Shown here: in pieces, positions 5,379-64,000 of the stretch
How the letters are laid out: each line of letters begins with the position of its first letter
How positions within the stretch are numbered: the stretch's first letter is position 1
Origin: Psammoneis japonica
Lineage: Eukaryota
DNA length: 64,000 nucleotides
Reading direction: 5' to 3'
Assembly (NCBI GenBank): GCA_008632985.1
Contig: QPGO01000087.1
Coordinates: forward strand, 248,001-312,000
Translations under genes and position numbers: made by a program
The notes under the pieces: generated by a model
Seen by the model: the letters and a program-made list of their open reading frames with translations, nothing else
What the model was told of the DNA's origin: nothing
Database searches by the model: none

Positions 5379-5706
5379 ATCGAGTTTTATCGGCTGGTCC
5401 AACGAGTTCAAAGTGAGCTTCAGAAAACGAAGCCAAATTGCTGTGTACCGGCAAACCTCAGCGTTCAGCGTGTTGCAACTCTTCAACAACTCAACAGCAT
5501 GTCATCGCGCCATGGCCTCAACACGCTGCGCGCGCTACCGGTACCGGCATGGTGCGTCATGCGTCTCATTCGACTCAACATCTTTTCTGCCTTTTCTTGG
5601 CCTCTTGTTGCCTTCTTGTTCGCCATGAGCCATCATACTCAACACCGCAGAGCAAACGCAGATCGCAACAGCAAGCTAAAAAAGCACGCCAATCAATGAC
5701 AGCTTA

Positions 5707-6720: not shown

Positions 6721-7109
6721 GAACCTTCGCTGGCATCATGAGAGATTTGGGTGTGTTTCGATGAAATGCAAAGAGCGACTTCTGTCAGCTGGCTAACTCT
6801 TCTCTCTCTAGTAGAGAGAGAGGTTACCTCTGCTGCTAGCTAGAGCCACTTCTAGAGTAGAGCTCTAGAGAGCAGCGCTGTACAGTAGAGAGACATCGGC
6901 ACTTCGTTCGTACAGTAAAAGCAGTGGGGCGGCATACGACGCGACGGGCAGACCGACCCGCGATCTGTTTGGTCGTGTTTCCAGTTTTGTGTTTTGGGTT
7001 TGTTCGAAAAGGTGCCGCGAAAACAACACAATCCGTGAGTGACCACAACATTTCACAATACAAGTATTGGACTGCGGTCAAGACAAGATAACCTCAGATC
7101 AGCAAGAAT

Positions 7110-11579: not shown

Positions 11580-11814
11580 TTAGCATTTCTCTTTTACAAA
11601 ACCGTCACAACCCCACTGTCATGAATGGCGAGATCGACTGGAAACTAAAATGATGAGTAAAAAAAAAGAGTCAAAAAGATCGCGATCTTTTTGCGATCTT
11701 CACGAGAAACTACTGCTTCACCCGATGATGCGCAGTTGCGCGCCATTGGGATTTGGTGTCGTGGTGGCACTTTTTGTTGTCAATTTGCATGTTGTGCTTT
11801 CCGAAGACAATGTA

Positions 11815-13700
11815 CAGATGGTTGACACACATGTGATGTTTGGATGGAGATGGCTCCACCAGTGCAGTGGATGCATTCTCCCAAACCCAAAGCTGGTGGA
11901 TGGTGGCAGACTGAAACTGTCACCAGCATTTCCTTGTTGTTGGCTCTTGTTCAGAAGAATGTGAGGTGAGCCACCACCAAGGGGCTTTGTCAATCTTCTC
12001 TTGCGTTGGTCTGGGGCACTCTCAACTCATGCATGTGGTCAATGAAGGTTGGGAGGTGTTGTCCATGTCAAGAACAGTGTGGGAGTCTGCTTTTCTTGTG
12101 TGCTGACCCTTGTGTCAAGAGAGCAGTCATCATGTGCGGCAGTCATGTTTGGATCTGGTGAGGCCGGGCCGCCCCACTTCTGTGCCCTCTCCAAAGCCAA
12201 AGTGCAAAGATGACACACATGCAATGTGAGGAGCAGAGACACCTCTGTCTGCCAGCAGAAGCACAGTGCAGGGGGGCACTCCCAAGCTCCCACAAAGCCA
12301 GGGCCACAAGCACACCACGTCCACAATGTGCGCTGGAGACACACAGCTTGTGGGGCAACTTCTTTGCTTGGGAGTCAGGAAATGGGCTGAGCCAGTGAGA
12401 AGTTGTCATGCTGAAGTGAGCCAGGCAAAATTTTGCACAACTGGTCAGCTTGCAGGTGTGCAAACAGCACAGCATCTCATGGATGATGCGACACCTGCTG
12501 CTCTGCAGCCTGTGGCATCACAGCAACTGTGAAAACCTGCAATCTCACAGGAGGGCGGGCACACCCAGCAACAACCTGTGTGCTTCACATGTGATCATCC
12601 AGCACACTGTGCATGTGTTGGGGCAGCAAGAAGGGGTGCTGCAGTTTAAAGCCTCTTGCAGCTTAGAAAAAAAGCTCCTTTTGGTGCAAGGCAACAGTGA
12701 GTGAGCAAACCTCTCCTGGGAGTGCTTGTGAAAATTTTTGGCAACAAACGCCACAGGGCACTGCAAAACATGATGGCACACAAACTGTCCAACTTGTGCT
12801 GATTGATGCACATGACAGCCACTGGCATGTTGTGTTCTGATGACACACCAAAGAAATGCATGTGGCCAGCACTTGAAACTTGAAAGAATTTGGAGTGTGT
12901 GGCTGCAAAATCCACTGTGACCTGAACACATGACATGACTTGAGAGAGCGCCCTTTGAGAGGTGATGCACAACAATCATCACATGGCTGCTCAGACAACC
13001 AGGACAGGCACAGCCATTGGACAGGTGCTCCACCTTGCCAGGTGGCTGTTGGCTGTGCAGGTGGTGGTGTCAAGCACAGCTTGTCCAGGCTGGCCTTGAT
13101 CAGCCTCTTGCAGCTTGGAGAAAAAGCTTTTGGTGCAAGGCAAGGCAACAGTGAGTGATCACAAGAATTCTCCTGGGACATCAGAGGCCCCACAACACAG
13201 TGGTCATTGCTGTTTTTGATGTTCATTTTGCCTTTGAATTTTGTTTGTCTCACTCATTTAAATGTGATGATTAAACTTGAACGGTGTTTGCACAATGCAA
13301 GGTGTTTGCATGTTTCATGAGGAATTTTGTCATCTGTTTGCATTGACAACATGTCCCAAAGCAACTTGCATTTCCAAATGTTTTGTGATTGAATGTTTGA
13401 GTTGCAACAATTGATCCTCTTTGCTTTTGATGCTTTAGATTTCAACTTGGTTTTTACTTTTTACACCCCATTTGTTTGTGTGTCACCATGTGTGCTGGCA
13501 TCGTGTCTGCACCCAAGTCATCTCCACGTGTGCACTCCCTCTTTGCATCTCACTTTTTCCTGGAATTCTGTGCATGTTTCTCCGCCATGTGTTTAGTGCT
13601 TTTTCTACATGAGCCATTTTCTGTGCATTTCACAACAGTGCACCCTCTTCCCAAAATCAATTTTACCAGGCAGAGTGTGTGCTGTTGTGATTCATGCAAT
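11815..13700. mobile_element. Heavily hypermutated repeat-derived sequence, family not identifiable
   Basis: Near-absence of TpA and CpG. Contains a ~380-nt segment (12418-12790) repeated at 18102-18440 and partly at 13100-13180. Confidence 0.6.
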
Positions 13701-14949
13701 TTTTGCATGAGGAGCCACCAACGGATTTCTTCTGGCCATGGCAGTCAATGACTTCACCCCTGTCAGTGGACGAGGTTGACCCTGATCCCTCATTCATCTT
13801 TGCTGATGATGTCAATTTTGATGACACAGAATGTTTCACTGATGGTTTTGGAACGGAGCTTTTTGGGCCCAAGCTCAAGAGCACAACTGCCATGCATGCA
13901 TCCAAAAAGCAGTTTGTGGAGAGAACAAGCTGGTCACCCTCTCCAGCACTCCTTGCACTTCCCTTCCTTTGCCACAAGCCCAAGCTTTGTCACATTCCCT
14001 GCATTGCTGAAGTCATCCGCACAAACAACATTGTCAGGAAAACTTTTGGATGTCCCAATGTTTGGTCCCACATCATGACTCATGGTTGGTCAACAAAGAA
14101 ATCCTGCTGGAACAAAGGTGAGCATGTTCTTTGGCATCAAAATTTGGAGGATGCTCTTTGTTTCTACACCCCACCAGGAGAGACAGAAAAAGAAGAGGAG
14201 CACCATCGTGACCTTCACCGCAACACAAAGGTGATGGTGGAGTTTGTGTGCCAGATCATTGCCAGTGAGGACCTCAATGATCCTGTCTCAGGCAAGCCTT
14301 GTTTCCATTTTTCTACAGTGCAAAAGTCTCCAAGATCTGATTGACAACTGAGCACATGACCTTCACGGTGCACACTTTGTCATCAAAATGGTCATGCATT
14401 GTGTCCACTGCAAACCCCTGGACAGGAGCCATTGGTTCATGCAGATCTTTTGTGAAGTCGCCACCCAAAAGGAGTGGCACATTTTTGTCTGCAGCTTTCT
14501 TGTCATGTGCCAGTTGAGTGAAGTTGGTTCTGAGGAGGAAAAAGTCAAGGGCTTTCTTGGAGACAAACTCTGTTGCACCAAGGACATGGCAACAATGGAG
14601 GGCAATGCCGTTGTCGCCCGAGAGGCACACAACAAAGCAAAAATCAATGCCATGCGACAGCATGCATTTGGGAAGCGTTGTCCAAAGGAGCAACCCAGCA
14701 CATGATCCAGGTGCTCCAAACAGCTCACAATGCTGCATTGCCAAATGCAAGATCAGAGGGCTGGCCACTTGGATGATGACAAAAAAGGGGAGCACAATTC
14801 AAAACCAAACACAAAATTGGAAGGATTTGCAAAGATGGCACCTGCTTGCACGAAGCTGGCAAATGCTTCCTTGTGCCTGCAAAGCTGTTGTTCATTGTTT
14901 TTTTTTTAAGGATGTCTTCTCTGTTCCATTTCTTTCTCTCCAAAAGAGC

Positions 14950-17900
14950 CTCACAAGAAGACCAAGTCTGTTTCACGTGGCAGTTGTGGATTCCTTGTTT
15001 GGAATTTTTGCAACTTCAAACTGTCTGGTTGCCAGGTCAAAATCATCATCAAACATTTTGGGACCACCAGGGAATCTTTTTCCCTTCTGCATGACTTGCA
15101 TGGTCCAATGAGATCCACACACAGGGTCTTTCCCATGGCACTGACTTTGCACACTTGGGAGACAAATGTTGGCATTTGCTTCTTTTGTTTCTTCTTGAAC
15201 TTCTGGAGTGCAAAACATTTTTCAACACATGTTTTCACATGTCTGCACACATGGCAGACCACCACAAGTGTTGTGAGATTGTCTCTTCTGTTCCATTTGT
15301 GCCAGGATCTACCAGAAGGTGCTGCATGTGATGCCAATCTCTGTTGCTGACTTTTGTGACAACTTTGGTGCAACAATTTTGTTCTCCTGACATGTGAGCA
15401 TTTGATCTTGCTTGCCTCCACAAGAAGTCTTCACATGACATGTTACATCCAACAATTTGGAGAGAATGTCTTTGCCACATTTCTGTTTTGTGTGTGTCAA
15501 TGGAAAGACATTGTTGCAGGATTCAGGTGCAACCTTCTCAGCCAATTGTTCAGTGCCAAGGTTTTCTTTCACAGTGAGTCAGCTGATTGCATCTGCAACA
15601 ACACTCACCTTGCCCCTGCAGCAAACAAATTGTGTTGGGGCTGCATTCTTCAAGACTCTGTCTGCAGCAAAATTTTTATGATCCACAACTGTTTTTGTCT
15701 GTTGGCCAAACAACACATTTTGGAACTCCTTGGGGGTTTCCACCACAGACAGCAGTTCTTTTGCCATTGTGCTGGTGTGGCACATCTGTGCTTCATTTGG
15801 CTTTTGGCTGTGGAAGGCCCCAGGTTGGTTGTTCTGTGATGTGGCCACACCAATTGAGAATTGCTTGCACCAGCATGCATCTCAAAGGGTTTGCCAAACT
15901 TTGGACACAATGATGATGTGTCTTTTGACACAGCTTTCTTCACTTTTTTGAAGGCTTTTTGTTCCATGCTCATCCGTTGCCACATGACCTTCTTAGATGA
16001 GGTGATTTTGACTGGAGGAGCAAGTGTGTGAGAATGTTGAGGCCACATGTCTTGATGGCAGTCAATCACGCTAAAACACCCCCACTTTCTCAGGAATTGG
16101 TTGTGTGCCTTTTCATGAAATGTAGAAACCCAGACAGCCTGCTTTGGACTTTGCAAAAAAGGACATTTTTGCACTGACCTTCAAACCGGCTTGTTCAAGC
16201 CACGAGCCACATGAACACCATTTCAAGTTTTTGGAGGTGTCCTTTGAAGTCACCTTTTGTTGGAGTGTGTCATCATCACATGTTTTGACAAACTCTAAAC
16301 CCACCATGAGCTCTCACTTGTGTGCTCTTGGAAAATGTTTGGAGCTTGACAAATTCCCGTTGGTGGGAGTCTGCAGCACTCACATTTCCCCCACGGCATC
16401 ATGATTGTGCACAAACAACACATGCACTTGGTGTCAACTCAATGTGGTGACATCTCATGTTCAAATCAAGTGACATTGCACACATGAAGCCCTTGAGCTT
16501 CTGAAGCATGTCTTGAATGTTGGACAGAGGGTGTGGAGCATGTGCTGCCAAGTCTCCAACTCAGCTGACAAAAGTTGGACAAGAACCAAACTCTGCCATT
16601 TTTCTCAGTTTAAACACAAAGTTTGCAGAGCAGTTTGTTTTTCTTGAGACTCCTGTCTTGCAGAGTCTTTTGACTTCCTTTGAAGCAGTCCCCTTAAGAC
16701 CTGTGGAACAGGAAATGGTTTTGCATGATGTTGGGTTGCACTGAATTTTGGTGCAAGATCTGCCAGTTTCCCTGTCCATGCATCTGAGGCACCATTGAAA
16801 AGATTTTCAAATCTTTCTGGGAGGAAGTTCAATTGCTTCTGTTCCTCTGGAGTGAGGTGTGTTGCTGCTGCAGTTGCATCATTGAGGTCAGCAGCATGAT
16901 GGTCAGAGTCAAGGATCCTGTTGACCCTGTCATTTTAAGAGGACTTTTCATGGCCTCAATGTGATCGGCAATCAGCTTGAAGACCTTGGCACAAAAAATG
17001 CATTGACATTTTTCATTGGTGTGGTTGCATCTTTTTAATTTCCTCATTTGCAAAGTCCAGTGTGACTCCAAGACTGCTCATTGAGTTGTGTCCCATGATC
17101 ATGTCATGCTTGCATGAAGAAGAACACCGTCTTCTCAATCAGTTTGTGCTCATCAAATTCAGGCAATGAGAGCTGAATTTTGCATTTGCTCCCTCCCTTG
17201 GTTTCCCAACTTTTGGTGGCAGATGCGTTGGCTCTTAATCTCCATGCAAATTGTGCAAAATTGTGGTTGACAATGTTCCACATCAAGAAGAACACACAGA
17301 GGCTCATCTTTCTCTTTCCCCAAAGGAAGCCTTCACACAAACAATGATGCTGGACCAGTGCAAATTGCTTTGGCCCTTTTTCCAGGCTTCCCAACATCCA
17401 GCAAGGCATGAGACTCCTTGACAGGTGCCAGTCATTTTTCAGATTTGCTGTGTGTCATTCTGTTGAATTGGCAGTTTTCCTCACTGAGAGCATCAGAGTC
17501 ACAATCTTTGCCTTTGTGCTTTTTGTTGTTGTTCAAGGAACTTGTGTTGAGAGATTTGTTGACTGCCTGTGTGGTCATGGCACTCAACTCTTCCTTGTGA
17601 AAAGCATTTTCAGTGTTGTGACGTGACCCTGTGTGATTGCCATTTGAATGATGCCATTTCAGGTTTGGCTCAGAATTGTCGCGGCATTCCTTTGCCAGCC
17701 TTTTAATGACCCAGCATTCATCCACATGTTGTGAGTGGCCTTTTCACAATGAATGCACCACTTGCAGATTGGCGACCATTTTTGGCACCGTGTTGGGGCC
17801 CACCTTTGGTTTGGGACCAGGTTTGCTGTCAGCATCATTCTTGACATGAGTTTGGTCTTAAACATGCCCTCAATGACCTCCAAACATTCCAAGAACTCAA

Positions 17901-19250
17901 CCAACTTGTTGAGGGCATGGACTGAGATTTCAAAACTGGCTGATGTCACCATCAACAAGGTGCAAGGTTGCAGACGATGTCCTTGAGCTCATGTTCATTC
18001 AGATGCTGCTTTTGCTTGAAGGGAGGACAGAACTTGAAGTCTTCATAAATTTCCTGAGTTCAAGCTGAAATTTCTCAAATCTTCATCATTTCTGGTTTCT
18101 TGAGCCAGGCAAAATTTTGCACAACTGGCTCAGCTTGCAGGTGCACAAATGGCACAACATTTCATGGATGACACAACCTTTGGCATGACAACAAATGTGA
18201 AAACCTGCAATCTCGCAGGGTGGGCACCCAGCAACAACCTGTGTGCTCTTCACATGTGGCAATCCAGCACACTGTGCATGTGTTGAGGAAGCAAGAAGGG
18301 GTGCTGTGGTTGAAAGCCTTTTGCAGCTTGGAGAAAAAGCTTTTGGTGCAAGGCAAGGCAACAGCAAGTGACCAGCCACAAGAACTCTCCTGGGAGTGCT
18401 TGTGAAAATGTTTGGTGCAAAAACATGATGGTGCACAAACTGCTCTGTGAAACAGTTTTCTTGAAGTCTGAAGACATGTGCAAGAACACACAAAACTCTG
18501 ACACATCTCATGCACTGCACTCAAAGAACAAGCGTGCAAACAGAAAGAATCACGAAAAGTGAAAATTGTGAGATCAAATTTTGTTCAGCCATTTGCAGTT
18601 TCTCTGAAGAAGTTCTCAATGGCCCCAGGTCTTTGCACTGTGTCTGCAGATCAAAGGCCATTTGGAGCAAATGATCATGACAACAGATTGCCTGGATGCA
18701 ATCAACATTGACATCTCACATGTCAACATTGTTGGGTGATTGCACCTGCAATTTTTGACAGCATTTCTGATTTTGAAGTGCACTGGTTGTTTTTGAAGGC
18801 TCCATTGGCTTCTTTGTCATCTGCATTCATGGCCTTGGTCTCAAAAACGTGGAGAGCATCTCCCTGCAACAATGCACTTGTGAGACAGAAATCATCAGCT
18901 TGCTTCTGGATGTTCTGTCCAACCAAGACTTGACGGTGTGTCTTGAGGAATTTGATGTGCTTGGGAACGCCTTGCTTGTTGTGGTGCTTGACATTGATTG
19001 CGTGAGTGCAGCTCTTCTTGTTTTCAGGGTGAAAGCACTGTTCCATCTTGAGGCACTGACTCGGTTTGAGCATCTTTGGCTCAGAAATTGACTCCAAAAA
19101 AAGGAAAAAAATTCTCCTGCTCGATGAAAGACATGGCAGCACAGCAACATGAGGTGAAAGCTTCAATTTTTGGTTTTTACAATCTGCGTTGTGTGTGTGC
19201 ACAATGCACCATGCTTGAAGAAATTGTGCAAACAAAAGCAGAAAGAATCA
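14950..19250 (-). mobile_element. Decayed Ty3/Gypsy LTR retrotransposon (gag-protease-RT-RNaseH-integrase), integrase truncated
   Basis: gag (QVLVGQNI...ALLQGDAL.VFE; ELKDIV), RT (AKPFPVPQ..KEVKRLCKTGV; FVKT-CDDD for YxDD), RNaseH (KPFE.H..AS..QL; AF.S.K.N.AQ....KELLSVVET.KEF), integrase (PGTN.TEETISQHLWW; LCVDLIGP; FEVAKIPNK). Domain order RT-RH-INT is Gypsy-type. Confidence 0.92.
18102..18440 (+). repeat. Second copy of the 12418-12790 segment, interrupting the Gypsy gag
   Basis: Colinear match beginning gagccaggcaaaattttgcacaactgg and ending ctctcctgggagtgcttgtgaaaat...gcacaaactg. Confidence 0.9.
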
Positions 19251-20467
19251 CAAAAAGTAAAAAGCTCTCAATGGCCTGAGGCATTTGCGCCATGTTCGCA
19301 GATCAAAAGCCATTCAGAGCATCTGACCATGACAACACAGATTGACCCAGTTGACGCTGACAACTCATGTGCCAACATTGTCGATCAACCATGTTTGCAA
19401 TTTTCAACATCCGATCAAATCTGTGTGATTAATCTGTCCTTCATGTGCGCCCACAATTGCAACATGATCAACATGTGCAACAACATGCAACTGTGATGAA
19501 TGTGAGTGTTTCTTCCTGCGCAACAACACACAATGCATTCATTGCCAAGAAAGGAGCAGCCAGCAATGTTGCCACCTCAGCTGGCTTGTCACTCCGGATG
19601 AAAATGCATGAGCAGCTGGTGTTTCTTGTGAGTGGATGAGATGCTGCAACAAGCACAAGATTGTGCTTTGAGGAAGCCCAGCAATGTCTTGGCGTTGCAG
19701 AGCAGCGCAGCTCTTTTTGGAGAGCTCTGCTCAACATGGTGCCAACAGGAGGGTGGTGCTCTGCCACAAGTGCAGTGTGCAACATGAGCAAAATTTTCCT
19801 TGTGCTCAAAAATGCACGTCAGAGGAGCATGTGCTGGAGCAAGCACAAGGTGTGTGTTGAGGAATGGTCGGTGGGTTGGAGCATGTCTGGTGGTGTGGCG
19901 GACAGCTCCACAAGGTGCACAATGACAGCGAGCCAGACCAACTCACAAGCAGAAAATGTGCTGTCAAGATCTGTGCCCTGGCTCTTGGCTCTCCCAAAAC
20001 ACACATCATTTTTGGGCCCAACAGTTGCATGGTGTGGTGGTGGGCAGCAAATGAGCATGGGGCCCTTCATTTTGGGAGTGCACCCCAGTCTCTCTCAATC
20101 ATGTTGGGAGCCAGCAGTGATGGCAACGAAAGGTTTGGCACTGCGTTCTTGCTCCGTCGGTTTACGACAACCCTTTGGTTGGTAGAGTTTGTGCTTGCAG
20201 TTGCAAATCAGACACTTTGCACATTGTGTGCACACAGTGTGACATCGGCAGAAGATGACCCATGGATTGTCATCATGAGCGAGCTGCTCTCTACTGGCAT
20301 TGCGAAGAACGCACCGGCACGCACATTACATTCGGTGCCGGTGCGGTCCCGCATGCATTGGACAGCACTGTAGAGTTCGTCCGATTGGGCTTAAATCTCA
20401 TTAAACATGGGCTTAAATCCTCGCATGTCTTGTGTCTCCTCAAAGCATTCGCGCGGTACGATGATCG

Positions 20468-22009
20468 ATGATCGCCTCACATAATCCACGAAATCAACAG
20501 CAGCAAGCAATGAGAACGATGCGAACCTCTCTCGCTGTTTTGTTGGTCTTGCTCCTCCTTACAGGCGTGTGTTGGGGAGAAGCTACAAAAAGGGATCTAC
20601 ACTGTCGATACACTGTCGACATCGAGGAAGAAGTTGACGAAGGAGGTCCCCATGACAACGACGGTGGACCGTCGAATGACACTGTTGTGTGCATTGAAAG
20701 TTCCATGGCATCTCATGTGGACAAGATGGCCGAAGTGTTTGTGCTTGAGGTGGATGGATGCCACCAAATTGGGAGAGAGTGGTCGACAGATGGGATCTTC
20801 TTCAGTCAAAACAACAAGAAGATCTCACCAACGGTCCAGAATCACATCATGGCAAAACCAAAAATGTTTCTTGACGGCGAGCTCACTTTCGAAAAGAAAA
20901 TTAGACTAGAAGAAAATGCTGCTGGACACGGGCGATGCTTGGTGCACAATGTAGATGCGACCAAAAAGATTAGAAAAAAACGGAAGAAGAGAAGGACGAG
21001 AAGGCGCAAGTTCTCTCTGAACAACAAGGGGCATTGCAGAAATTGTCTTGCAGATGATGCGGATGCCAGACGGAGAACACTGAAATCTGGATCTTTCATC
21101 CGTAACATGATTCACAGTGTCACGTTTGAAACCTGGATGAACATTCGCATCCAAGAGGTGATGCAAGAAGATTGCTCACTGGTGACAATTTTCAGCACAA
21201 CCTTCTCAAGAGTGGAGAATGGACAAGTGACCCATGCAAGTGGTCCGTGCACTCCTGTAGAGCAAGAGGCAGATCTAGAAATCACTGCTTGCGGGACCAT
21301 GTCACCATCACATGCGCCGACAATCGGCCAGCCAGAAACAGAAGAACCATCAACAACACAACCAACATTCCCACCGACAAAAGGACCGACGGAGTCGCCA
21401 ACAACATTGCCCGCAACTGCACCGACGACATCACCTGCCATTGTCTCGGTCACGTCACCAAAAGCTGCTCGTTGTTCCTCTGAGATTTCAGTGAATGGGG
21501 GTTTTGAAGACGGAAACCTGAATGGTTGGACACAGTTTCCATCTCCGGGCAGCACCCAGACTGTTGGCAGTGGTGTCCCTTTTAACCCCACCGAGGGTAA
21601 TTTTGCAGCAAAAGTGGCAAACCCTGCGCGGGCCAGCGGGAGTGTCATCAAGAATGCCAATCTTGGCATGGGTCTCGTGAAAGCAAACGATCCCATTGCC
21701 GTTTCGTTTGACGCCCGCGCGGACGTGCTGGGCCCTGGCGCCTTGGTCTTTGCCGAGTTTTTCTCCGAGCTTTCGGGTGGCGGGACATCGAGAGAAGAAA
21801 TTCTCGGAGGAGGACCAATTCTTTCCGTGTCTAATCCTGGCAAATGGAAATCATTCTCTTTTAGCACGACTGCAGGAACAGACGTTTCAGGTGGTGTCAC
21901 ACTCCAATTTGTCGTTGTAACCGGAGGAAACCAGAGAAGTAAAGCCACGGCATGCTTTGACAATGTCAGTGTCCGAGTCGGTCACTCTTGTAGCAAATGG
22001 CAAGGTTGA
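20468..22009 (+). CDS. Secreted protein with Pro/Thr-rich linker and C-terminal carbohydrate-binding (CBM4/9-like) domain; open but TpA-hypermutated
   Basis: Signal peptide, CRNC..DD.D.RR motif, PTxxPT linker, VNGGFEDG...GW...FDNVSV domain. Only 1 Tyr in 513 aa. Confidence 0.75.
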   Translation: MIASHNPRNQQQQAMRTMRTSLAVLLVLLLLTGVCWGEATKRDLHCRYTVDIEEEVDEGGPHDNDGGPSNDTVVCIESSMASHVDKMAEVFVLEVDGCHQIGREWSTDGIFFSQNNKKISPTVQNHIMAKPKMFLDGELTFEKKIRLEENAAGHGRCLVHNVDATKKIRKKRKKRRTRRRKFSLNNKGHCRNCLADDADARRRTLKSGSFIRNMIHSVTFETWMNIRIQEVMQEDCSLVTIFSTTFSRVENGQVTHASGPCTPVEQEADLEITACGTMSPSHAPTIGQPETEEPSTTQPTFPPTKGPTESPTTLPATAPTTSPAIVSVTSPKAARCSSEISVNGGFEDGNLNGWTQFPSPGSTQTVGSGVPFNPTEGNFAAKVANPARASGSVIKNANLGMGLVKANDPIAVSFDARADVLGPGALVFAEFFSELSGGGTSREEILGGGPILSVSNPGKWKSFSFSTTAGTDVSGGVTLQFVVVTGGNQRSKATACFDNVSVRVGHSCSKWQG

Positions 22010-52073: not shown

Positions 52074-54420
52074 TCACGGGTCAACGTATTCGCCAATTGT
52101 TCGGTAGAAGGCGCTCTTGAACGGGTCACTGAGGATCTCCTTGGCAGCATTCAGAAGCTGCGAATACTGAAGAGCCCAACAGCTCAAACGGTTGTGGTCC
52201 GTGTGGTATCGAAGACTATTAACCCGCCAAGCAGTCGTGACATCTAGAGGCGTGGGATCATCCCCTAAACCCAAGAAGCCTTTGGGTGTCTGGAGTTTGA
52301 TGGTATGGATGAGGCCTGCCAGAAGAGAATTTTTGAAGTTTGCAAGACCATTCAGGTTTGAATGGTCAAAAAGACCGAAGGTCTTCAAAGGGGAATGGTC
52401 GCAAAGGTTCAGCAGGAGGATGTAATCCCACTGGGCCTCTCGGTATCGTTGAACTGCAACAAGATGAGTCACTCGTGCGTATACAACTCGTGCCGTGAGG
52501 CTTGGCACACCCTCCCATGGGTGAGCCTCCTGCTGCATGATAGGACAGATTTCGTTAGACAAGTCAAGTGCCTCCTGATAATCCGGCATGCGCCAAATGG
52601 CGGAACTCTCGTCCTTCCGAAAAAACTTGTCGGCCTTCTCCTGGACATTTGCATCGTGAAGAAGGCTTTCCGTGGCTTCTAGAAGACGGCCTGCCGTGCT
52701 GGACCAATCCGACCTCAAGAAATGAGGCCAGCGAAGCATTTTACACACCTTCAACTCCATTTGAGCATGAGAGGCGTCACTCTGGAGTGCCTTGGATGCA
52801 ACGTTGAAACGGTTCTGGAAAATCTTGATTCGCGCAAACTCTTCGAGTCGCCAATTGTCCCAATCTGGCTCGCGGTCGTCGAAATACAAGCTAGAGGCCT
52901 CCATGGACAAAAGAGACTTGGCAGTTTCCAACTTGTTGTTGAAGACCAAAGCCCGGACAAGGGACTTGGCAAGACAGGAGTTGCCGAGGTGTGTCGCAAA
53001 ACTGTCCTCATTGGGTTGGACGCTGATGCAAATTCTTCCGCGACACCCTTGAAACGATCGAAGTCAGCCATGTCCCCGACAACTGGCCCATCCCAATGCT
53101 CCACTCGACGAGCAAAATTCTCTAGCACTCCCACAACGCATGTCCAGTTGTTCCCGTCTGCATGCAAGCAGACCAGCTTGCGAAGTACAACAGTCGAGAA
53201 ATGTAGAGAGGTGAGCGATTCCATCGTTGGCGCGCCGTGCGAAAACACAACATGATGAAGGTCGTTCAATTCACGCTGTGTTTTGAGGTCCCCTTTTCCC
53301 TCGCCAAGCTGGTCGTCAAGCCAAGCTTTATGTTGAAGGCAGCTTTCTTTGTCATCCTGGGCTAGAGCACACAAGGCGAGGCACAGCTAATTCGGTGCTT
53401 CAGTGAGCTTTTCAACGACTGCACCTGCAAAAGGGCCAGACACTCGTTGGCCGCAAGATCGTGCAGGGAAAGCACGCGCAAAGCTTCGGCCCGGCACAGT
53501 CGGGCCTCGTGATTGTCCTCGTGTTCAAGACACCGGCTTGCCACACTGACGAGAGTCTTGGCAACGCCGCACATGCGATCATCCGTGGCCTCACAAAGCT
53601 CCTTGAAATGGGCTTGGGTGTTCTCTAGCTGCTCAAGCTCCTCAAGGAGAGCGGCAAACCCATTGGTGACTGAAGTGTTGGTCGGGGAGATGCCAGCACC
53701 GGTCGAGACTTCCAACGTGTCGTCGGCAACCGAAGGCGTGACGTCCAACTTGGCAGGAGCAGATGTGTCTTCTGACTTCTTGGTGGTGGCAGGAACGTCA
53801 TCCATTGAGGTTGAGGCGACAGCGGCAGTGCAATCTTCGGTGGGGGCTTCCATCTCCTCGGTGGGCTCCTCAACATCAGAGACCACATTGCCGCGAGGAT
53901 TCGTGTGTTGTGGGCATCGATGGGGGCTTCGTCAGTGGCGCTGTTGGTCTTGGCTTCGGCGGCAGCATCTTCCGAGTCAGTGGGGGCATTCGTGAGGTCG
54001 AGCCGCCAGCATTCTCCGAGTCGGCAGGGGCGTTGGTCGAGTCGGCATCGGGAGAGGCACCTCCTTGTGGCAAATCATTGTGCGCTTGATTGTTGGTCTC
54101 GCCGTTGATTCGACGACATGGATGCCAACCTTTTTCATTTTGTTTGCACGTGAGTTGGCAAAAACGAAAAGTCTGAAAAAGGTGTTTGAAGCGTTGCTTC
54201 AACTTCTTGTCCACCAGCCACGCTTCCAGGTTCTGGCAGAGTTCGTGGAATGCAAATGCTTCGTCATGTGATTCCGGCCTTGGAAGAAAGCCAAGCTTTC
54301 TCTCCAAAGAATCTCCATTTCATCTTGGGTGGGACCTCGACCTTTTTGTTTGGAGGACGGGGTGACCAGTGGCTGCTGTAAAGCTCGCACAGATTTAGCG
54401 GTGCCGTGTGACCCATGCTG
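52074..54420 (-). pseudogene. TPR-like + C-terminal J-domain gene, frameshifted and progressively TpA-hypermutated toward its 5' end
   Basis: FLGL.......V..AWR..SLRYHTD.N.......SQLLNAAKEILSDP (J-domain, HPD->HTD). Helical TPR-like segments upstream and several frame changes. Confidence 0.65.
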
Positions 54421-55099
54421 TCCTTCAACTCACAGAAAACCAATGCTCGACGTTGCCATTTCTTGAGGACAGACAATGGCAATGATGATGGCGGAGAGCC
54501 AGGAGGAGGGCCGCGGTGTGCACGAGGACCATGATGATGAGCGGGGGATGGCGAACCCGGCTGCTGCTCATGCGGACGCCGCCGCTGGCTCTGTCGAGTG
54601 CTACGACGACGAGTGACGGACCGAGTTGTTCTCTTTTCCATGGTTCGTTGTTGTGTCCGGCAAGTCGGGACACCTTGCCAAGAGCGCTGTTTCGATCTTG
54701 TCGCTCTTTCTGTCGATCTCTTTTGAGGAGACAAGTTGAAGGTGGCACCAACAAGAGCAACGAAACAATGACTGTGAAAGTGGAAGAACGACAGCCATGG
54801 CCACAGCGAAATCTTTCGCTGATCCTCTATGAATTTTCAAATTTGGCGGTCCGGCGCGCTGCAGTTGGCAGCACATGCAGAAGATTCATCGTTGACAACA
54901 AAAATGTCGGTAAAATGTCGTTGAAAAGGCCCGCGACATTTTTTGACTCTCACACTCACGAGCCGCAAACTTCAACAAACTCAATGTGTTGGGCTACGTT
55001 CAGTGGGATCGTGCTGGCCGGGGACCAGCAGGAAGAGCGTGCGTGAGAACAATCATCGCTTGCCCAGTCGAGTTGCCAGTCCAAGCCTGGTGGGCCCCA

Positions 55100-58000
55100 G
55101 CAATGACAATCAAGTCCAGAACGAGCGGGACAAACAACAGCAACAGCTGCTTCTTTGCAGGGGCATCATTGGCTGTTGCTCGCAATGAGCAGTTCAAGAA
55201 GGAGTTTGCCAGATGGCAGGGAATGAACCCTGCAAAACAAGCAGTGCAGGAATCTCACAAGGTCAGCGAATCCCCTGCAGATGATCTTCTGAGATGACAG
55301 AAGGAGACTCATTTGAATGCTGCAAATCACATTGAATGACCAAGAATGGATGAAGCAAAAGAGGTGTCAGATTGCACAGGTGTGAGCCATTGTCTGTTCA
55401 ACAAATGCAAGGAGCAAGACACAGAACAGCCACAAAGGCCTGCTGGAAGCACATTTGTCATCAGCTGTGCGGAAGAGAAGGAAGCAGATCTTGGAAAAGG
55501 TGACACATGAATCAAAAGTGCGAGGTGTGGATGCATTCCAGCTCCAGCTGGGTGATGCCTTGTGCTGCTGAGCTGTGACAACATCAACAGTTTTCTTTAG
55601 ATCACACCTGTGCTGCACACACACAATTCTGCATGTGACTTTCTATGAAATCATTTCATGCTCCCACTTTGCAAAGCCAAACACTTTCTGTTTTCTCCTT
55701 TTGTGAAAATGAAAATTGGTGGCTGGGTGTGTTCTTCAATGTCTGCAGAACTTGTTGTGGCAAACTCTGAATGACGTTTGCAAAATTGCCTCTTTTTCTG
55801 TTGGCAATCACTCACATGTTCATTGCTTGATGATTTCACTGGTGGTGTGGAGCTTGCATGTGGAATTTCATGGGCCCAATGTCACACACAGTCCCACCTG
55901 GGGCTGGAACTCATCTGTGGCAGGTCTGGGATTTTCTGCATTGCAATTTCCTGGGACCTGGGGACTGTGGAGGCAGCCAAAGACGTGGCAGTGGTCTGAA
56001 GCATGAGATGCAGATGTGGCATTCATGAAGAAAGTCAATGAGGAGCAAAATGATGTGGAGCTAGCCCACAAACTTGTCAAGCTGCTTGCCCAACATTGTG
56101 ACTCCCAAGACACTCGAGTCAAGGAGGACACATGCCCAGATCAGTGCACTTCTGTCCTGCCAGCACTCACCCACCAGGTGAGCTGCATGCCATGGACACT
56201 CCAAGTGACTGTCTTAAGAGCTGCCATGACAAGTCCTGTGCTGCTGTGAGGAGACTCATGTGATCAACCAATGTTCTTTGGCAGGGCAAGCTCTAGAATG
56301 CAACCCTTGCAAATCAACTTGATGGAGTGAGACTTCAGCTGGTCCTCTGGAACATTCTTTGGCAGGTTGGCCTGCACTTTGTTTGTCATCAGCCTTGCCG
56401 CCACTGACCCATCTTGCATGCTGTGAAGGTCAAGAAAGCTGCTGAATGCATGATGGAAATCACAACAAGCACAGTGATCATGGTTGGGGACTTGCACCAT
56501 GGCATGTTGCCAGATGGACTTGAGTTCCTGCCTGGTTACATCAATGACTTCAAAACCAGGGATCCAAGACCACTTGCTGCATTGTTGGAACTTTGCCACC
56601 CTGGCCAATCACACAATGCAAAAGAGTCAATTGGAGTCACCTCTGCATGAGACAAGACAGATGATGGAAATCACAAGCACAGTTGTCATGGTTGGGGACT
56701 TGCACCATGGCATGTTGCCAGATGGACTTGAGTTCCTGTCAGGTGTCACATCAATGATTTCAAAACCAGGGATCCAAAACCACTTGCTGCATTGTTGGAA
56801 CTTCACCACCCTGGCCAACTGCACAATGCAAAAGAGTCAATTGGAATCACCTCTCCATGCAACAAGACAGCTTGCCAGCCAGCAGGTCATTGCTGGTCAC
56901 AAGCTCCTGGAACAACACTGCACATGTTTGTTTTGACAAGAGACTGGTTGAGTTTGTCTCTGCACTCTTCTGCCCTGCAAAGTGGCTGGCAGTTCAACTC
57001 ATCCTTTTTAGAACTGCACATGTCTGCATGCCACATGTGACAGCTCTCCTTCCAACTCCTCAGACTGGGGAAAGGTGTCCAAGTTCTTCTTTGATTTTTC
57101 CAAAGCACCTGAGGACTGACATTGTCAAGAGGTGCTGCAGCAGGTCAGAAGAAGGCTCCACAGCACCACCCATTTGAAATTCAGGAATTGGACAATCCAC
57201 AGGCCATTGTGCAAACATCAGAAGAAGGGCAATCACACAGTCACCTGTGACATGCTCAGAGATGTGACCTCCACCAAAGTGGGGCCTTTTGTGACAGTTT
57301 TCTGGTGCAAATCAAAAATCTCAATGGCAGCATCATGCCCTGAGCAGTGCTTTTTGCTTCCCCAAATTTCAGAGTTTGGCCCATTGTTGTTGCAGAGGGT
57401 CAAATTGAAATTGCACATGGGACAGCAGAAAGAACATTGTCTGGTTGAACTGCAGAGTGTGACTTTGGAAGGGTTGCAATTGCCATCATCATCTCATTGA
57501 TGAATGAATGCAACACAACACATGCTGACTCTTCACTGCACTGCAAAATGCAGAGTTGGTGCTGCCGCAGATCACAGTGCTGTTCCTGCATTGGCAAGGT
57601 TTTGCAACTTTCTTTTCTTGAAAGCTCACACTCAAGTCTGGAAAAGTGCACAGCACATGCAAAAGATCAGCTTCAAAAACTCATCACAGACATCTGCACT
57701 CCTGTTGCCATTGGGGGCAGGAAAAGATTGATGAGTTGCCGGGGAGGCAAAAAGAATGTGGAGCTTGTTGTGCCACCTTCATCTGATTTGTTTGTTGATG
57801 AGGAAAGACCACAGCAGAATGCAGCTGGACAGCTGCTGCCACTGACAAAATCAAAGCTGGATGACATTTGTTCTTGCAGCAGGGCACCACAAACAAGCAA
57901 AGCCAGGGCAGGACTGGCACGTCAATCTCAACTGCGATGTGTTTCCACTGGCATTGCTGCCATGCCCACAAATGCAGCATCCATCATTGAAGTTTATTCT

Positions 58001-60950
58001 TGCAGTTGTGTGAGCCAGATTCAGAGAACCATTTCCAATTCTGCATTTTTCAAGCTTGTTTTGCCCTGCCATCTCTGTCATCTGTGATCCCTTGGTTCTT
58101 GAAAAATGCCATGGCAGCTGTTTGCGTGATGAGTGGGTTTGTCCAGAGAAAGCTGTTGACTGGTCTCGTGAAGCACTGGTTGACACCCATTGTTGCATGC
58201 CATGCTTGTTTTGCTCCTCACATGTTTCTTCCTTGACAAAAAAACCTCTGCACTGTTCCCACTTTGTCAAATCAACTGCTTCCAGCATTCCATCAGTGCT
58301 GCCCACCACCAGGCAGTTTCCGTCCAACTTGTCAAATGATGGCATCAATCTAACTTGTCACATTTGGTCAGACCCCAGGTTTCAGTGCAGTTGTGCCAAG
58401 CACATGATGATGCCTTGTCTCTGCGCCAGATGCAACCCATCTCATTTGCTGCCCATCCTGACTGCAAGTGTCCCAAGTCTAGAATGGAGACAGCACCATC
58501 ATCACCAACAGCGACAGCCAAAATTCCATTGCTGCAGTCCAGTCTGTGTCACACACAACCCCAGCATGTGGAACTGTTGCATTGCCAAGCATCTCAGGTT
58601 TCCGCAAGAGAACACAAAGATCAAAGCAAAACAGTGGCTTGAGAAAACAAAACAATTGATTCAATGGAGTCCATCACTTGTGAACACACCCATCAAAATG
58701 TCTTTCTTGGAACATCCCTGCACAGCTTTTTCACACTGTGGATCAACAGAGCACAAAAAGTCATCTGTGAAATGCACCTGGATGGCTCTGGGCATGCAGG
58801 GGTTGTTCAGATGCAGCACTGACAGATGGTGTGTGTGTTGTCAGTGGCATTGTGTGACAGCCCTTGTTTCCTTTCCTGTTGAGTGACACCCAATGGACAG
58901 CAAAATCAAACAACTGTTCACAAATGATTGCACGTGTGTCTTTGCTGCCCACCATTGCTGGACATGTGCCTGTGGCATTTTGCAATGCTGCTTCACATTT
59001 GCATTCAACATCGTGAATGCCTGAACAATTGACAATTTTTTCTGCAGGGTGTGGCCAGTTGCACAGCTGCGTTGAACCCAGATCATGTGCATGACCAGCT
59101 GGCCCTGCCCTGGCCAACTTCACATGTGTGTGTGCACAAAAGAACTGCTGAGGACCAGCCAAATGCGCACTTTTGAGTTCTTTGGTCTCATTTTGCGCCA
59201 AATGCACAAAAATGCGCCACTGCACAGAAACACAACAGGATCCTGCATGGTGTCACACTGAAATGTTGCATGCACTCATCATTGTGAGCGGGCAACTGCA
59301 GCTGCAACAGAAGCAATTGGCCCTCCACTCCACAGTGGAGACAAGAAGTGACAGCCACTGAACTCACCATTGCATGCATTTACAGCTGTCACCTGCTCAA
59401 GCAAGTGACAGCACTTGCTGTTCAGTCACTCAAATGTGCAATCTCAAGAATGTTGCACAGGATCTTGGTCACGGTTGTTGAAGCTCACAGCAGCTGTGGG
59501 GCCCAATGCCATGCTTCCACGTGCAATCACAACCCCCCCAATTTTTGCCAAAATGCATTTCCAGCCAACTGATGTTGTGCCAATGCAAAGTTCTTGACAA
59601 CTCATGGGGTTGCAAGGAGAGAGTTGCATCAGCCAGTTGCAGAGCTGTTGCTGAAATTTGTCCCTTGCACTTTCCTGTGCAATGGAGGTCATGCCCCATG
59701 AAAAGCTGCTTCCATTTTCAAATGCCCAATGCCAGGAACAGCGTGCACCTGTCACATTCTTGCAAGACACTGGTTTGGAGCACATGAGACCAAAAATGCT
59801 TGCATCTTGGGTGTTTCCATGTCTCCAGCTGACAGAGGGTCAAAGTCCAGCTAAACAAGTGGGTCACAGCACAGGATTCAAGACTCATCATTCAGGGCAC
59901 AACAAAGGGGAAAATTGAACCTTTCTCTCAACACCAAGGCAGTCTGGACAATGACATTAAAGCACAACCCACTTCATGGCTGTGCTCCATTTGTGAGTCA
60001 TTGCTGACCTCATGATGACTGTGTTTCACCTCTTTCATGCCAAAAATGTCCTTGAGTCCAGTCAAAGCCAACACAAAAATTGTTCTCCTGAACAGTTCAC
60101 AGTGCAAATTTCACATAAAAAAAAGGGTGTGGACACTTTCTGGACATGGACACAAGGAGACATGCCACACAATCCACAAAGATTCGCTGCAAAAGCCACA
60201 CTTTTGTGCTTTCACATCTCTGTGATTTGTCTGGAGTCTAAAGCAGACATGCACAAGGGAGAACTTCTGTTCACAAAAATTTTCATTCTGCAGGACAGCA
60301 GCATCAATGCAATTTTGTCACTGTGGTTGGCTGCTTTTTTTTTTGAACCACGCGCCAAGAATTTGTCAACAAAATCAATTCTCTTTGTTGTCTCAACAAT
60401 CTGACTCCCTCCAAATCAAAAGCGCAAGGGTGGAACCACTGAAGGCACTTCCTCAAAGTCTCAAAGTGTTGTTTTGAACCAAACAGTTGCTCTGTGCATG
60501 TGAACCCTGGCGCAGTGTCCCTTGCTTGTGTGATGATGGGCCAGAGCTGTTCTTGAGCCATCTCACTCTTGGTCCAAACAAATCCAACCTCCTGCACCAG
60601 CAATGTCTCACACTGCCACAACTTGATTGTTCATTGGTTTTTCTTGTGTTTCCATTGGCTTTGACTCAGCGGGTGCTCAAAACACAGATGGTGTTGGGTG
60701 CATGAAGAATCAGCACATGATGTGGCATCATGAATGTGACCAAAACAGCATGTTTCAAAACATCCCACCAAAATGCTTGTCTCTGATTGGACAATTGCAG
60801 TCACATGATGCATGGAGTTAGACAGAGCAATGGCTGCAAATGTCCAAAAAAGATGATGGTTCAGGCACCCATTGAAGCAACGCAATTGTTGCCATTGCAG
60901 TCAAAACATCAAAGTCATTTCAGACATTCACAAATGTTGCTTGCATCATC
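55100..60950. mobile_element. Heavily hypermutated, probably repeat-derived sequence, family not identifiable
   Basis: Almost no TpA or CpG over ~6 kb, coding-like remnants and an internal tandem duplication. Confidence 0.55.
56450..56860 (+). repeat. ~200-nt tandem duplication (period ~211 nt)
   Basis: atgatggaaatcacaa...gagtcaattgga.tcacctct at 56450-56648 and 56661-56858. Confidence 0.95.
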
Positions 60951-61629
60951 GAGATTCAAATCATCTCCTCTCTTCTCACAAATCTGATCAAAACCGATCG
61001 TTGAGATCTCTCTTCAGTTTGCACTCATAATTTCTCCGTGGAGAACTTTGACAACGACTTCTGCCATTCTGTTGCAACCTTGAGCTCTTGCTCTCACTGA
61101 CACAAGCTGCTTTGTTGCATCTTTAGTGGTTGCGAGTCCCAACATCGCACAGCGTTCGTTCCACCACCGGGAAAGCGCTGTCGACTGGGTCATCAAAGCT
61201 TCCATCCACCACCAACGTCGATTTGTTCGTTTCAACCAAACGGCCGCATTGTTTCACGTTCTGAACGACACCTCCAGTCGATGTCAGACACCACCTACGT
61301 CTCCACTAGCCGCCATCATTCGCTGACAAGCTGGCAGTTCACAACGCGTCAAGGACTCAACCTGCAATCTCCAACGCGTTCCGAATTTGAAACCACAACG
61401 TCCGTGCGTTTCAAACCAAACCCGGATCGAGTTCCTTCGACTCTCCGAGTCCCCCATCCCTCAAGAACAGCTCCTCAAGTGACGTCGCTGGTCACTTCTG
61501 TTGCACCATTGATTGTCGTAGTTGTTTGGCACGGTTCTGCAAGTGTTTTGACTCAAGAACGTTCCATTGCTCCATTGTCAAGTTGACTGCGTACATTTGG
61601 CACTGCAGCCACACAAAGTCATCTCTGCC

Positions 61630-64000
61630 ATGACGAGTGCCAACCCCTCTCCGCCCAAGACTCCACAATCGGGCACTCCTCCGCCTCCGCCTCCTCCTGC
61701 GGTTCCACAGAATCCGGCGCCGACGTCGCCCGGTTCACAATCTTGGACACAACCAATTCGTGGCGGAACTCACAAGGAACATGGTCGCTGCATGGGTGGA
61801 TCCCCGTTGGACGATGACCATCTCCCAAAACTCAAGCGGACCCATCGCTCTACCAACCAGTCTCGCGACAAGAAGATTCTTCCACACACAGAACGCAATC
61901 TCCGAGACGCTCGCAACAGAACCAACGTCATCAAGTTCAACGGAAACTTGGAGCTTCCCAACGGCAAGACAAATGAGCTCGACAAGGACCACTTCGTTCA
62001 ATCGGTCCACATGTTAGTTCACGAACATGGAATGGAACATTTCTTTGTCATGAAGCTCGGAGAGAAGGTCGTAGACCTCTTCGATCACCTCCACAGCTTC
62101 ACCGTCGACGAGGTCATTGCTGAGTGTGACGAACGCGTGAACAAAGCGACAGACGATTCGGCATACGATGAGCACGAGCATGACGACATCAACCTTGCCC
62201 GTCTCATCGTCGAGTCTCGTGTCACTCACCAGTTCCGCGAGAAAATTGAAACCCAGTTTGGCCATCGGGACCTCTTCCGTTACTTCCCTGGCCAAGTTAT
62301 TTTTATGATGGCGCTCGAAACCTGCAATGCCTCCGCCGTGCATGATGTCGCTCAAGCTTCTGACGATTTTGACGCTTTGACGCTTGATTCCTGTCCTGGC
62401 AAAGACTTTGCCGAATTTGCTGCCGAAGCGCTCTGTCTCACCAAGATCCTCCAAACAGGACATGCGCTGCCTGTCTCTCTCGGGTCCGATCTCCTTCGGA
62501 AGTGCTACAAGACCTCTGGCGAAGCGTTCAATCAAGCAATGTACGCCAAGTTAGATGACGTGACAGCCATGGAACGGAAATGTCGTTTAACGGACCCAGC
62601 GCCACTTGCCAAGGACAAGGATTGCTTCACTCTCGGTCCAACCGCATGCACCACATTCCTTCAGACGAAGCATCGCCACTTTGTCACCAATGAGGGCTGG
62701 CCTGGTCTTTCCACCAAGCTGCCTCAGGGCAACCACACTGAAGGCAAGGGCGCCTGCAATGCTTGCGGTGCTCTAGTCCATTGGGCTGACGATGAGTCAT
62801 GTCCCAAGTGTGCGGAACGTCAGCGCCTCAAGAAGCTTGCCCGTCAAAAACGGAAGGGTCAACAGCCATCAGGTGCTCCGTCACCTCCCGCTGCTGCTCC
62901 TGGTGCCATTGCTCCAGCGAATGCACCTGCGGATAAACAAGCAAAATTCAAGGAACTGTTGGCAAACGAGCCTCATCGTTGCACCCGTCCGGCCGATCTC
63001 AATCAAGCGGTCGTGAACAAGCATGGGTCGACTGCTCACTTTTGCACCAAGTGCACGTGCCGTCACACCGGTGTCAAAGGGTTTTACACTGGACACAAGG
63101 ATGCCGCCCATGCCAACAAGCCACCCAAGAAGGAACAGCCAGATGCCAATCTTGCATCCGTTGCTGATCCAGACTCTGGCGTGCCGGCTGGACCACCAGC
63201 TCAGACCACTCCCGACCCTTCGTCCACCAAGTCCGATGAATCGTCCGACGATGATGAGTCTCCCGTTTCTGAGGATGAACCAGTCTGGACCGGGGCCGGG
63301 ATTCATTGCTGTCCTGTTGAGGATGCATCCGATGATGCTGCTCCCCTTGCACGAGTCTCCGTCCTTTTGGGTCCTTCCGTCCAGAGGGAGCGGCCAGTGA
63401 TTTTGGTTGAAACAGTTGAACCAGAAGACGCTGACGATTTCAGCGAGTGCTGCGACACTTGCGACAATTTGGATTGGGGTGATTCTGTCATCCTCTTTCC
63501 GGCTTCGATGTTCCCAAAGGAGCCTCCTATCTTGGACGATCCACCACCTCCTGTCGAGTCCACTGACCTTGATGACGAGTTCTACGATGCAATCTCTGAG
63601 CCTGCTCCAAATGTCCTTGACCTGGAACCTCAGCCTGCTCATTGCTGGCTCTGGTCCCTCCTCAAGATCCCCATCTTCTGGCTCTCTGCACTTCTTTGGG
63701 AAGGCATGCTGTGGCTGGCAGGTGCTGGTGGTGATCCGCCGCCGCCCTCGCATTGCTGTCGCCGTCTCAAGCGCAAGCCCACTCCATTCAGTTGCCCGTG
63801 TTGGTGGGGCGTGATCTCATGTGCGATTGCGCTTTGGCTCTCCGTCTGTCTTGGACGAGCCCCGCCCCATCCGAGCGTTCCCTTGCAGCGCCCATGCTCT
63901 CAGACCCACAAGGTTGTCCAGGCTCTTGACGATCATGTCGTCTTGACTCCTGGCACCCTGCTGCAGTGTCATCATTTGAAGATCAAGCAGTTCAAGCATG
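61630..64000 (+). mobile_element. Ty1/Copia (CoDi-type) LTR retrotransposon gag(-pol) ORF, open to the window edge; presumptive LTR/leader upstream from ~61000
   Basis: 790 uninterrupted codons from ATG 61630 (not in the ORF track): PGQVIFMMALETCNAS, LTLDS(C)PG.DF.EFA.EAL, TG(H)ALP, GWP, zinc knuckle CNACG..VHWA....CP, FCTKC. These match my recollection of diatom Copia gag motifs; pol is not in the window. Confidence 0.8.

Follow-up and report, generated by a model that had tools for sequence, protein, structure and literature searches.

To our knowledge, the known mutational defences against transposons act through cytosine. Fungal repeat-induced point mutation (RIP) consists in a dinucleotide-specific change of C to T on both strands of repeats, which creates TA, leaks into neighbouring DNA and inactivates transposons. 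For Bigelowiella natans the main text of a preprint describes integrated viral DNA that is hypermutated at TpA, in two virus-derived regions (Mettrop et al., bioRxiv 10.64898/2026.01.13.699255). In the literature searched, with most subscription journals uncovered, a TA-specific A:T to G:C process is in print only for B. natans, and no diatom report of TA hypermutation was found. Here we describe the loss of TA from repeats of the diatom Psammoneis japonica, as seen in a stretch of 64,000 nucleotides (the window; contig QPGO01000087.1 of assembly GCA_008632985.1, positions 248,001 to 312,000 of the forward strand) and in the genomic copies of a decayed Ty3/gypsy retroelement that it contains. 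That TA changes to TG or CA after insertion of the element, on both strands equally, in sharp-edged patches of ~1–3 kb and ahead of the decay of CG, is virtually beyond doubt.

Loss of TA in the gypsy copies

The pol and gag regions of the decayed element occupy 14980..18104 on the minus strand of the window, and their conserved tyrosine columns read Cys or His. The assembly (91.4 Mb, 597 contigs) was searched with the core of this element; 40 of 296 candidates were scored and 30 loci returned. Seventeen loci form a young family, 92–97% alike, with 23–143 TA and 133–150 CG per ~2.9 kb. The detailed counts come from this one element family, in which 15 of the 17 young copies had both long terminal repeats (LTRs) in the fetched DNA. 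At 296 TA sites compared over these 15 copies, TA is found 1816 times, TG 1324 times, CA 1262 times, CG 16 times and a transversion 11 times, while at 290 CG sites CG is found 3907 times, CA 226 times and TG 199 times. Accordingly, 58% of the TA sites have turned into TG or CA, versus 10% of the CG sites (425 of 4350 states). The TG to CA ratio at TA sites is 1324:1262, the two products being interspersed at ~1:1 in every copy. The conversion of CG to TG or CA, which fits 5-methylcytosine (5mC) decay, is nearly complete in old copies. In one older copy (L032) 19 of 150 TA and 94 of 157 CG remain; in the window's copy 3 of 147 TA and 5 of 148 CG do. TA is lost first and CG later. Changes of C to T outside CG amount to 0.05–0.3% inside the patches.

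In 196 reciprocal columns of the young family TG in one copy faces CA in another. Some other copy carries TA in 132 of these columns, CG in 37, both in 5 and neither in 22. The first-pass annotation of this DNA had proposed TA to TG change on both strands, and had named as its counter-case that all reciprocal sites trace to ancestral CG and that TA/TG pairs are derived TG to TA changes; this counter-case fails in the young gypsy family. The direction of change is also visible in the codons. Tyr to Cys needs TA to TG and Tyr to His needs TA to CA, so that neither replacement can result from CG decay or from TG to TA change. The best 120 outside homologues, a set biased toward unchanged copies, share 20 conserved Tyr columns, and 107 of the 120 lack Cys and His there. 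Tyr is found at none of the 14 of these columns that are readable in the window's element, which has Cys at 7 and His at 7 of them and keeps Phe in 13 of 14; over 29 other gypsy loci the Tyr columns hold Cys 272 times, His 151 times and Tyr 117 times.

The two LTRs of one element are identical at insertion. Fifteen LTR pairs, most of them with visible 4-base target duplications, show 401 base differences, which comprise 73 TA/TG, 98 TA/CA, 81 reciprocal sites, 37 CG/TG or CG/CA, 2 TA/CG and 27 others, the last class including some edge artefacts. When the elements are aligned jointly, 81 of the LTR pairs' 85 reciprocal sites carry TA in other elements, a single one carries CG, and 3 are unassigned; in two older LTR pairs the corresponding numbers are 17 TA, 8 CG and 9 unassigned. 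Divergence of the same kind is observed between contigs C295 and C26, which share one nested locus that is 98.8% alike, flanks included. Its 94 differing positions consist of 33 TA versus TG or CA, 18 positions that make up 9 reciprocal sites, 34 CG changes and 9 others. Three young copies (L034, L042 and L045) share several TA to TG/CA changes in their 3' halves, which indicates that copies still arose from an ancestor that was already lightly changed.

Inside the patches, ~40% of the TA adenines are changed per strand (2229 of 5576), and the changed fraction varies with the base after TA (C 0.51, T 0.50, G 0.32, A 0.22). The AA dinucleotides distant from TA sites are changed in 0.51% of cases inside patches (36 of 7058), TA thus exceeding AA ~80-fold. 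Changes of A to G outside TA occur at 0.70% inside patches (157 of 22399) versus 0.09% outside (4 of 4495), and they gather beside edited TA sites. On the edited strand, such bystander adenines are changed in 43 of 702 cases at position −2, 25 of 363 at +1 and 9 of 377 at +2. The corresponding counts are 3 of 841, 7 of 645 and 4 of 433 where the opposite strand is edited, and 3 of 199, 0 of 708 and 5 of 592 where TA is intact; farther than 3 nt away all states lie at ~0–1.5%. The neighbours of native TG are rarely changed (1.45% and 0.84%; edited sites versus these, p = 2e-9 and 5e-12), so that the new context alone does not explain the bystanders. A second search supplied six further copies, which had no part in defining the sites on which they were scored; they give 13 of 174 at −2 and 5 of 83 at +1 (p = 0.0008 and 0.0006). 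Pairs of changed sites in TATA lie on the same strand in 163 of 232 cases (70%; permutation 0.53, z 6.1), against 0.48–0.56 at wider spacings, and no long strand-coordinated tracts were found in the gypsy copies. The same-strand bystanders point to hits on one strand that each span ~4 bases.

Within single elements, stretches of ~1–3 kb with 70–90% of the TA sites changed adjoin stretches with 0–10% changed, and CG loss is 7–8% inside the patches and ~2% outside. The spared zones recur at similar places (21 gypsy copies, judged by eye), namely in mid-element (~10), at the 3' end (~7) and in the 5' LTR (~4), and they are common to copies with differing TG/CA patterns (L104–L117, 21 gypsy copies). 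These zones are possibly promoters or chromatin borders.

DNA other than retroelements is also TA-poor, including a single-copy stretch, a CBM-type gene, duplicated methyltransferase genes and a satellite; as no unchanged copy of these is available, their TA loss is deduced from composition. The satellite (G000:C86, ~317300-327000; L054:5250-10000 and L055:1-5000) extends over ~9.6 kb with a 7-base unit that ends in CA 422 times, in CG 180 times and in TG 159 times, and it holds 3 TA and 352 CG overall. Its appearance is that of a unit which once ended in TA or CG and is now midway through the change. The duplicated genes (L136, L137 and L138, on G000:C301 and C297) encode C5-methyltransferases, a domain with 27 matches in the genome. 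They have lost TA with CG intact, and their frames contain 0–2 Tyr each, with stops in some.

Proposed mechanism and rival explanations

Our preferred reading, with a probability of roughly 0.58, is that chromosomal repeat DNA is acted on after insertion by a mutator that is directed by chromatin and turns TA into TG or CA (A:T to G:C). On balance, the evidence tilts towards deamination of adenine to inosine as its chemistry, carried out by a deaminase of the TadA/ADAT fold or another deaminase where a single strand is opened for a short time. Each encounter would hit one TA, with TAC and TAT as the best and TAA as the worst substrates, and would sometimes also strike an adenine 1–2 nt away on the same strand, after which replication would fix the change. 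TG and CA would end up interspersed because such encounters are many, independent of one another and on either strand, and slower CG decay in the same patches would later add its own TG and CA. Targeting is probably guided by silent, presumably CG-methylated chromatin and not by the pairing of homologous sequences. A connection with methylated chromatin is suggested by the shared patches together with the DNMT5-dependent CG methylation of transposons in the diatom Phaeodactylum (PMC9998398). The effect would be the inactivation of transposons, with leakage into adjacent genes.

A genome search with PF00383 yields matches that we take to be dCMP deaminase, TadA-like, ADAT2-like, RibD-like and guanine-deaminase-like proteins. 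The ADAT2-like gene, at G000:C26, contains the HxE and PCxxC motifs and an Asn at the position linked to activity on DNA. Amphioxus ADAT2 deaminates A in DNA (PMC10354150), and the engineered TadA editor ABE8e makes genome-wide A to G changes, mostly at TA (PMC13225742). Two further loci carry deaminase-like sequences. One frame (L094, G000:C79:87006-90176) combines a deaminase fold with a 2OG-Fe(II) dioxygenase domain, and its protein probably serves small-molecule metabolism. The other (L099, G000:C151:67565-67717) is a deaminase-like gene fragment in TA-poor DNA with apparent Tyr to His and Tyr to Cys changes near the motif.

Several observations weigh against the proposed mutator or its deaminase chemistry. 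The 10 PF00383 matches are ordinary-looking and none is singled out as the enzyme, and the Asn of the ADAT2-like protein is common in eukaryotic ADAT2, while amphioxus ADAT2 prefers GAA, not TA (PMC10354150). Sequence cannot separate a lesion on A from a lesion on the paired T. All detailed counts derive from one element family, the same 15 copies also served to define the site classes, and the counts are not all independent, since changes inherited between L034, L042 and L045 lead to over-counting of mutation events. The least-changed copy, L045, shows about as much CG change as the heavily changed ones. In the six further copies the control with the opposite strand edited is not near zero at +1 (5 of 136); there is a weak long-range same-strand excess (0.52, z 2.6); and off-target adenines show no ordering by the 5' base (A 0.51, G 0.45, C 0.39%). 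With regard to spread, none of 80 gypsy relatives from metagenomes has an observed/expected ratio (o/e) for TA below 0.3 or even below 0.42, in a search with exact peptides that is biased against changed copies, as 3 of the 6 peptides contain Tyr, and so does not show absence.

An outcome of A:T to G:C, strand symmetry and short same-strand clusters would equally be expected if the T of RTA were oxidised by an enzyme or otherwise modified in silent chromatin and miscoded as C, with a translesion polymerase erring at nearby template T. Oxidised thymine does miscode, and Y-family polymerases insert dG opposite T. However, the bystanders are similarly frequent before (−2, 6.1%) and after (+1, 6.9%) the site along the direction of synthesis, and they are solely A to G, and a thymine lesion is a less likely source of the changes than deaminated adenine, although it predicts nearly the same data; a search of the genome for Tet_JBP gave no match, but was uninformative as the control was silent too. 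Still less probable is a prior mark, such as methylation, placed on the TA adenine in silent chromatin and followed by deamination or miscoding. Such a mark would account for why the changes keep so strictly to one dinucleotide and for the edges of the domains, in analogy with 5mC decay at CG, but its second step would have to be far faster than CG decay (58% versus 10%), and by itself it leaves the changes at unmarked neighbouring adenines unexplained. The coincidence of CG and TA loss in the same patches and the 27 C5-methyltransferase domain matches would fit error-prone repair synthesis of the polymerase-eta type, with A to G at TA and AA, triggered by the repair of deaminated 5mC in methylated repeats. 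Polymerase eta mutates TA and AA within a few-fold of each other, whereas here TA exceeds AA ~80-fold. Moreover, there are 11 transversions versus 2586 transitions at TA sites, long same-strand tracts are lacking, and several of the 80 metagenome relatives have lost CG (o/e <0.1) and kept TA (0.72–0.97), so that this explanation appears improbable.

Two further explanations can be discarded as general ones, each having at best a minute probability. Change at the RNA or cDNA stage of retrotransposition, by A-to-I editing of RNA or reverse-transcriptase error, is compatible with retroelements being the best-studied targets and with the inheritance of some changes between copies. Yet the differences between paired LTRs run both ways, every copy has TG and CA intermingled at ~1:1, and the locus shared by C295 and C26, which was copied at the DNA level, diverged likewise; single-copy DNA, the 7-base satellite and the duplicated methyltransferase genes are TA-poor as well. 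The other explanation attributes all reciprocal sites to CG decay, and the TA/TG pairs to a RIP-like TG to TA change or to sequencing artefact. Of the reciprocal sites that can be assigned in fully decayed copies, about half do belong to the CG class (201 versus 212), and CG decay may apply to some of the five reciprocal sites of the duplicated segment discussed below. In the young LTR pairs, by contrast, only 1 of 85 reciprocal sites is CG-class, Tyr codons cannot become Cys or His by CG decay, and independent contigs agree with the assembly in the depleted DNA of the window. RNA/cDNA editing and pure CG decay are therefore excluded as general explanations.

The duplicated segment and the surrounding window

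The first-pass annotation was based on two copies of a locally duplicated segment on the plus strand. Copy 1 (12417..12787) has 2 TA, 3 CG and 94 TG+CA in 371 bases, and copy 2 (18101..18443), a piece inside the Ty3/gypsy element, has 0 TA and 1 CG. A partial third copy (13089..13178, plus strand) is nearer to copy 2 than to copy 1. The aligned copies differ at 32 of 327 ungapped columns, 22 of the differences being transitions, and they contain five reciprocal TG/CA sites (12459/18144, 12465/18150, 12642/18307, 12698/18365 and 12777/18432). Four of these had already been listed and are all present in the alignment; the fifth, at 12777/18432, is added here. When the 22 transitions are scattered randomly, a mean of 0.34 reciprocal sites results, and none of 200,000 runs gave 5. 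Both surviving TA of the pair sit in TAA and TAG, the least-changed contexts in the gypsy copies. The TA/TG site gctTAg/gctTGg (12664/18329) was read correctly and is the sole true one of the pair, as gttTAaag/gttGaaag (12647/18312), likewise given as TA/TG, is TTTAAA versus TTGAAA, a T/G transversion. The CG/TG site gggCGgg/gggTGgg is correct, while ctCAcag/ctCGcag hinges on the placement of a 3-base gap.

The proposed change of TA to TG/CA on both chromosomal strands is thus borne out by other copies and not by the pair from which it was drawn, which offers one valid TA/TG site and has no less-changed counterpart. The suggested consensus of all genomic copies of the segment is not attainable, as no third full copy was found in the assembly beyond the fragment at 13089-13178. 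DNA searches of the assembly (a lower bound) gave no further full copy, and a degenerate pattern permitting TA or CG at every TG/CA gave no less-changed one, so that the five reciprocal sites of the pair cannot be polarised. In four old gypsy copies, the window's among them, the reciprocal sites divide into 212 TA-class and 201 CG-class, with 329 unassigned columns. Because of this split in equally decayed copies, about half of the pair's five sites may be CG-derived; the reciprocal sites of the pair are a joint end product of TA change and CG decay. An interpretation of the segment as the LTR pair of a gypsy element was rejected, since copy 2 starts at the alignment break (18104).

Among the best 120 homologues of one host gene, every hit that carries a species name is from a diatom. 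Genic DNA of the window contains 40.8 TA, 56.0 CG and 144 TG+CA per kb. Two blocks depart from this composition. Block 1 (11750..20250), with sharp edges, has 4.0 TA and 8.9 CG per kb, block 2 (55250..61000) has 2.8 TA and 6.4 CG per kb, and TG+CA of both amounts to ~230 per kb. In adjoining zones (21000-23000, 53400-55000 and 61500-64000) TA is lost and CG intact. Apart from the gypsy pol and gag and the duplicated segment, block 1 comprises a decayed copy of an unnamed repeat family (13180..14950, plus strand), LTR-like pieces of the same gypsy type (18510-18760 and 19205-19459, within 18510..19459, minus strand) and a 5' part of this type (18790-19263, minus strand). All 30 fetched loci of the unnamed family are TA-poor over the matched part, and no TA-rich copy is among them. 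Its members (window 13180-14950; L061-L089) have long open frames of up to 704 aa with 0–3 Tyr, and two scanned pieces from the window gave no Pfam match. Block 2 includes a 210-base tandem duplication (56450-56870), 90% alike, with 2 reciprocal TG/CA sites.

Beside block 1 lies a host-type gene (20465..22009, plus strand; TA 12/kb, CG 50/kb) with a weak CBM_4_9 match. Its product has 1 Tyr in 514 aa, and a Cys (TGC) stands where 118 of 146 homologues have Phe or Tyr. The single-copy stretch beside block 2 (53400..55000, minus strand) has 4.4 TA and 68 CG per kb, and it belongs to a broken single-copy gene region (52074-55000) with a weak DnaJ match, in which TA declines toward block 2 while CG stays. 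On the other side, an open gag-like frame of a copia-type element (61552..64000, plus strand) has 6.9 TA and 63 CG per kb, which indicates that TA was lost earlier than CG; the integrase-region and RVT_2 domains of the element follow directly past the window end, and a search covering longer proteins only found no homologues of the gag. A small isolated island among ordinary genes (5600-6750) has 3.5 TA per kb and CG halved.

Public contigs from a run of unrecorded library type match block 1 with 1 other letter over 11669-12444, 0 over 15572-16601 and 2 over 17252-18130, which argues against a base-calling artefact. In a comparison of run X1 with the assembly, 1 of 35 checked listed differences is TA to TG (40 listed, 377 further). 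In an aquaporin-like gene beside block 1, both public runs depart from the assembly at seven closely spaced positions (11050-11239), only one of which is at TA. Run X2 skips two intron-like pieces and leaves 12007-20000 uncovered; it was not used as evidence.

Comparison with known systems

The diatom process resembles fungal RIP in its targeting of both strands of repeats, but its chemistry and direction are opposite, as TA is destroyed. RIP depends on the pairing of homologous sequences and on the sexual cycle; in the diatom, single-copy DNA is TA-poor as well, though leakage from a repeat could do so, and some copies keep unhit zones. In comparison with CG decay, the loss of TA is earlier and ~6 times more advanced in young copies. 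CG methylation of the DNMT5 type explains the slower channel from CG to TG/CA in the same patches, but cannot act on TA. Five metagenome elements (L157, L177, L182, L184 and L197) have a CG o/e of 0.02–0.05 and a TA o/e of 0.72–0.97; elements without CG but with TA indicate that CG decay alone leaves TA. Four others (L145-L147 and L159) show 3–4 Cys or His at the Tyr columns. TadA-derived adenine base editors also change adenines close to the target, within a small window (bystander editing). They share with the diatom process the TA-biased A to G change and the bystanders; they are engineered, unlike the natural ~80-fold specificity for TA over AA seen here.

The process has consequences for the reading of such a genome. 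Ages based on LTR divergence will be inflated, TA-stripped frames often remain open and would be annotated as genes, and host genes beside repeats acquire Tyr to Cys or Tyr to His changes. At the same time, the graded series of copies makes specificity, window size and domain edges readable, and the enzyme can be searched for in an alga.

The closest parallel is the Bigelowiella system, as far as the main text of the preprint describes it. The diatom process works like that system and agrees with its tested sequence features. Both are A:T to G:C changes at TA that give TG or CA on either strand, and both are confined to foreign or repeat DNA, with leakage into flanking single-copy DNA in the diatom; the preprint likewise proposes a deaminase of the ADAT2 type. 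The two differ in host, targets, saturation, patch structure and bystander signal. In B. natans, a rhizarian, new mutations are observed, TA is partly depleted and the high de novo rate differs between lines, whereas in the diatom LTR retroelements and other repeats have lost TA almost to saturation, and the loss forms kilobase patches within elements and is followed by CG decay. The main text on B. natans is without diatoms, LTRs, trinucleotide context or adjacent changes, the last two of which its supplements may bear on. Tentatively, diatoms and chlorarachniophytes might share an ancient defence, a natural DNA adenine deaminase guided to silent chromatin that edits TA in ~4-base steps on one strand. 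If so, it would be fungal RIP in mirror image and an adenine base editor of natural origin, and the bystanders, the TAC/TAT preference and the recurrent spared zones would be the first biochemical and targeting fingerprints of such a deaminase. A second case, in a diatom, that strips tyrosines from whole element families suggests that the system known from Bigelowiella is wider among eukaryotes.

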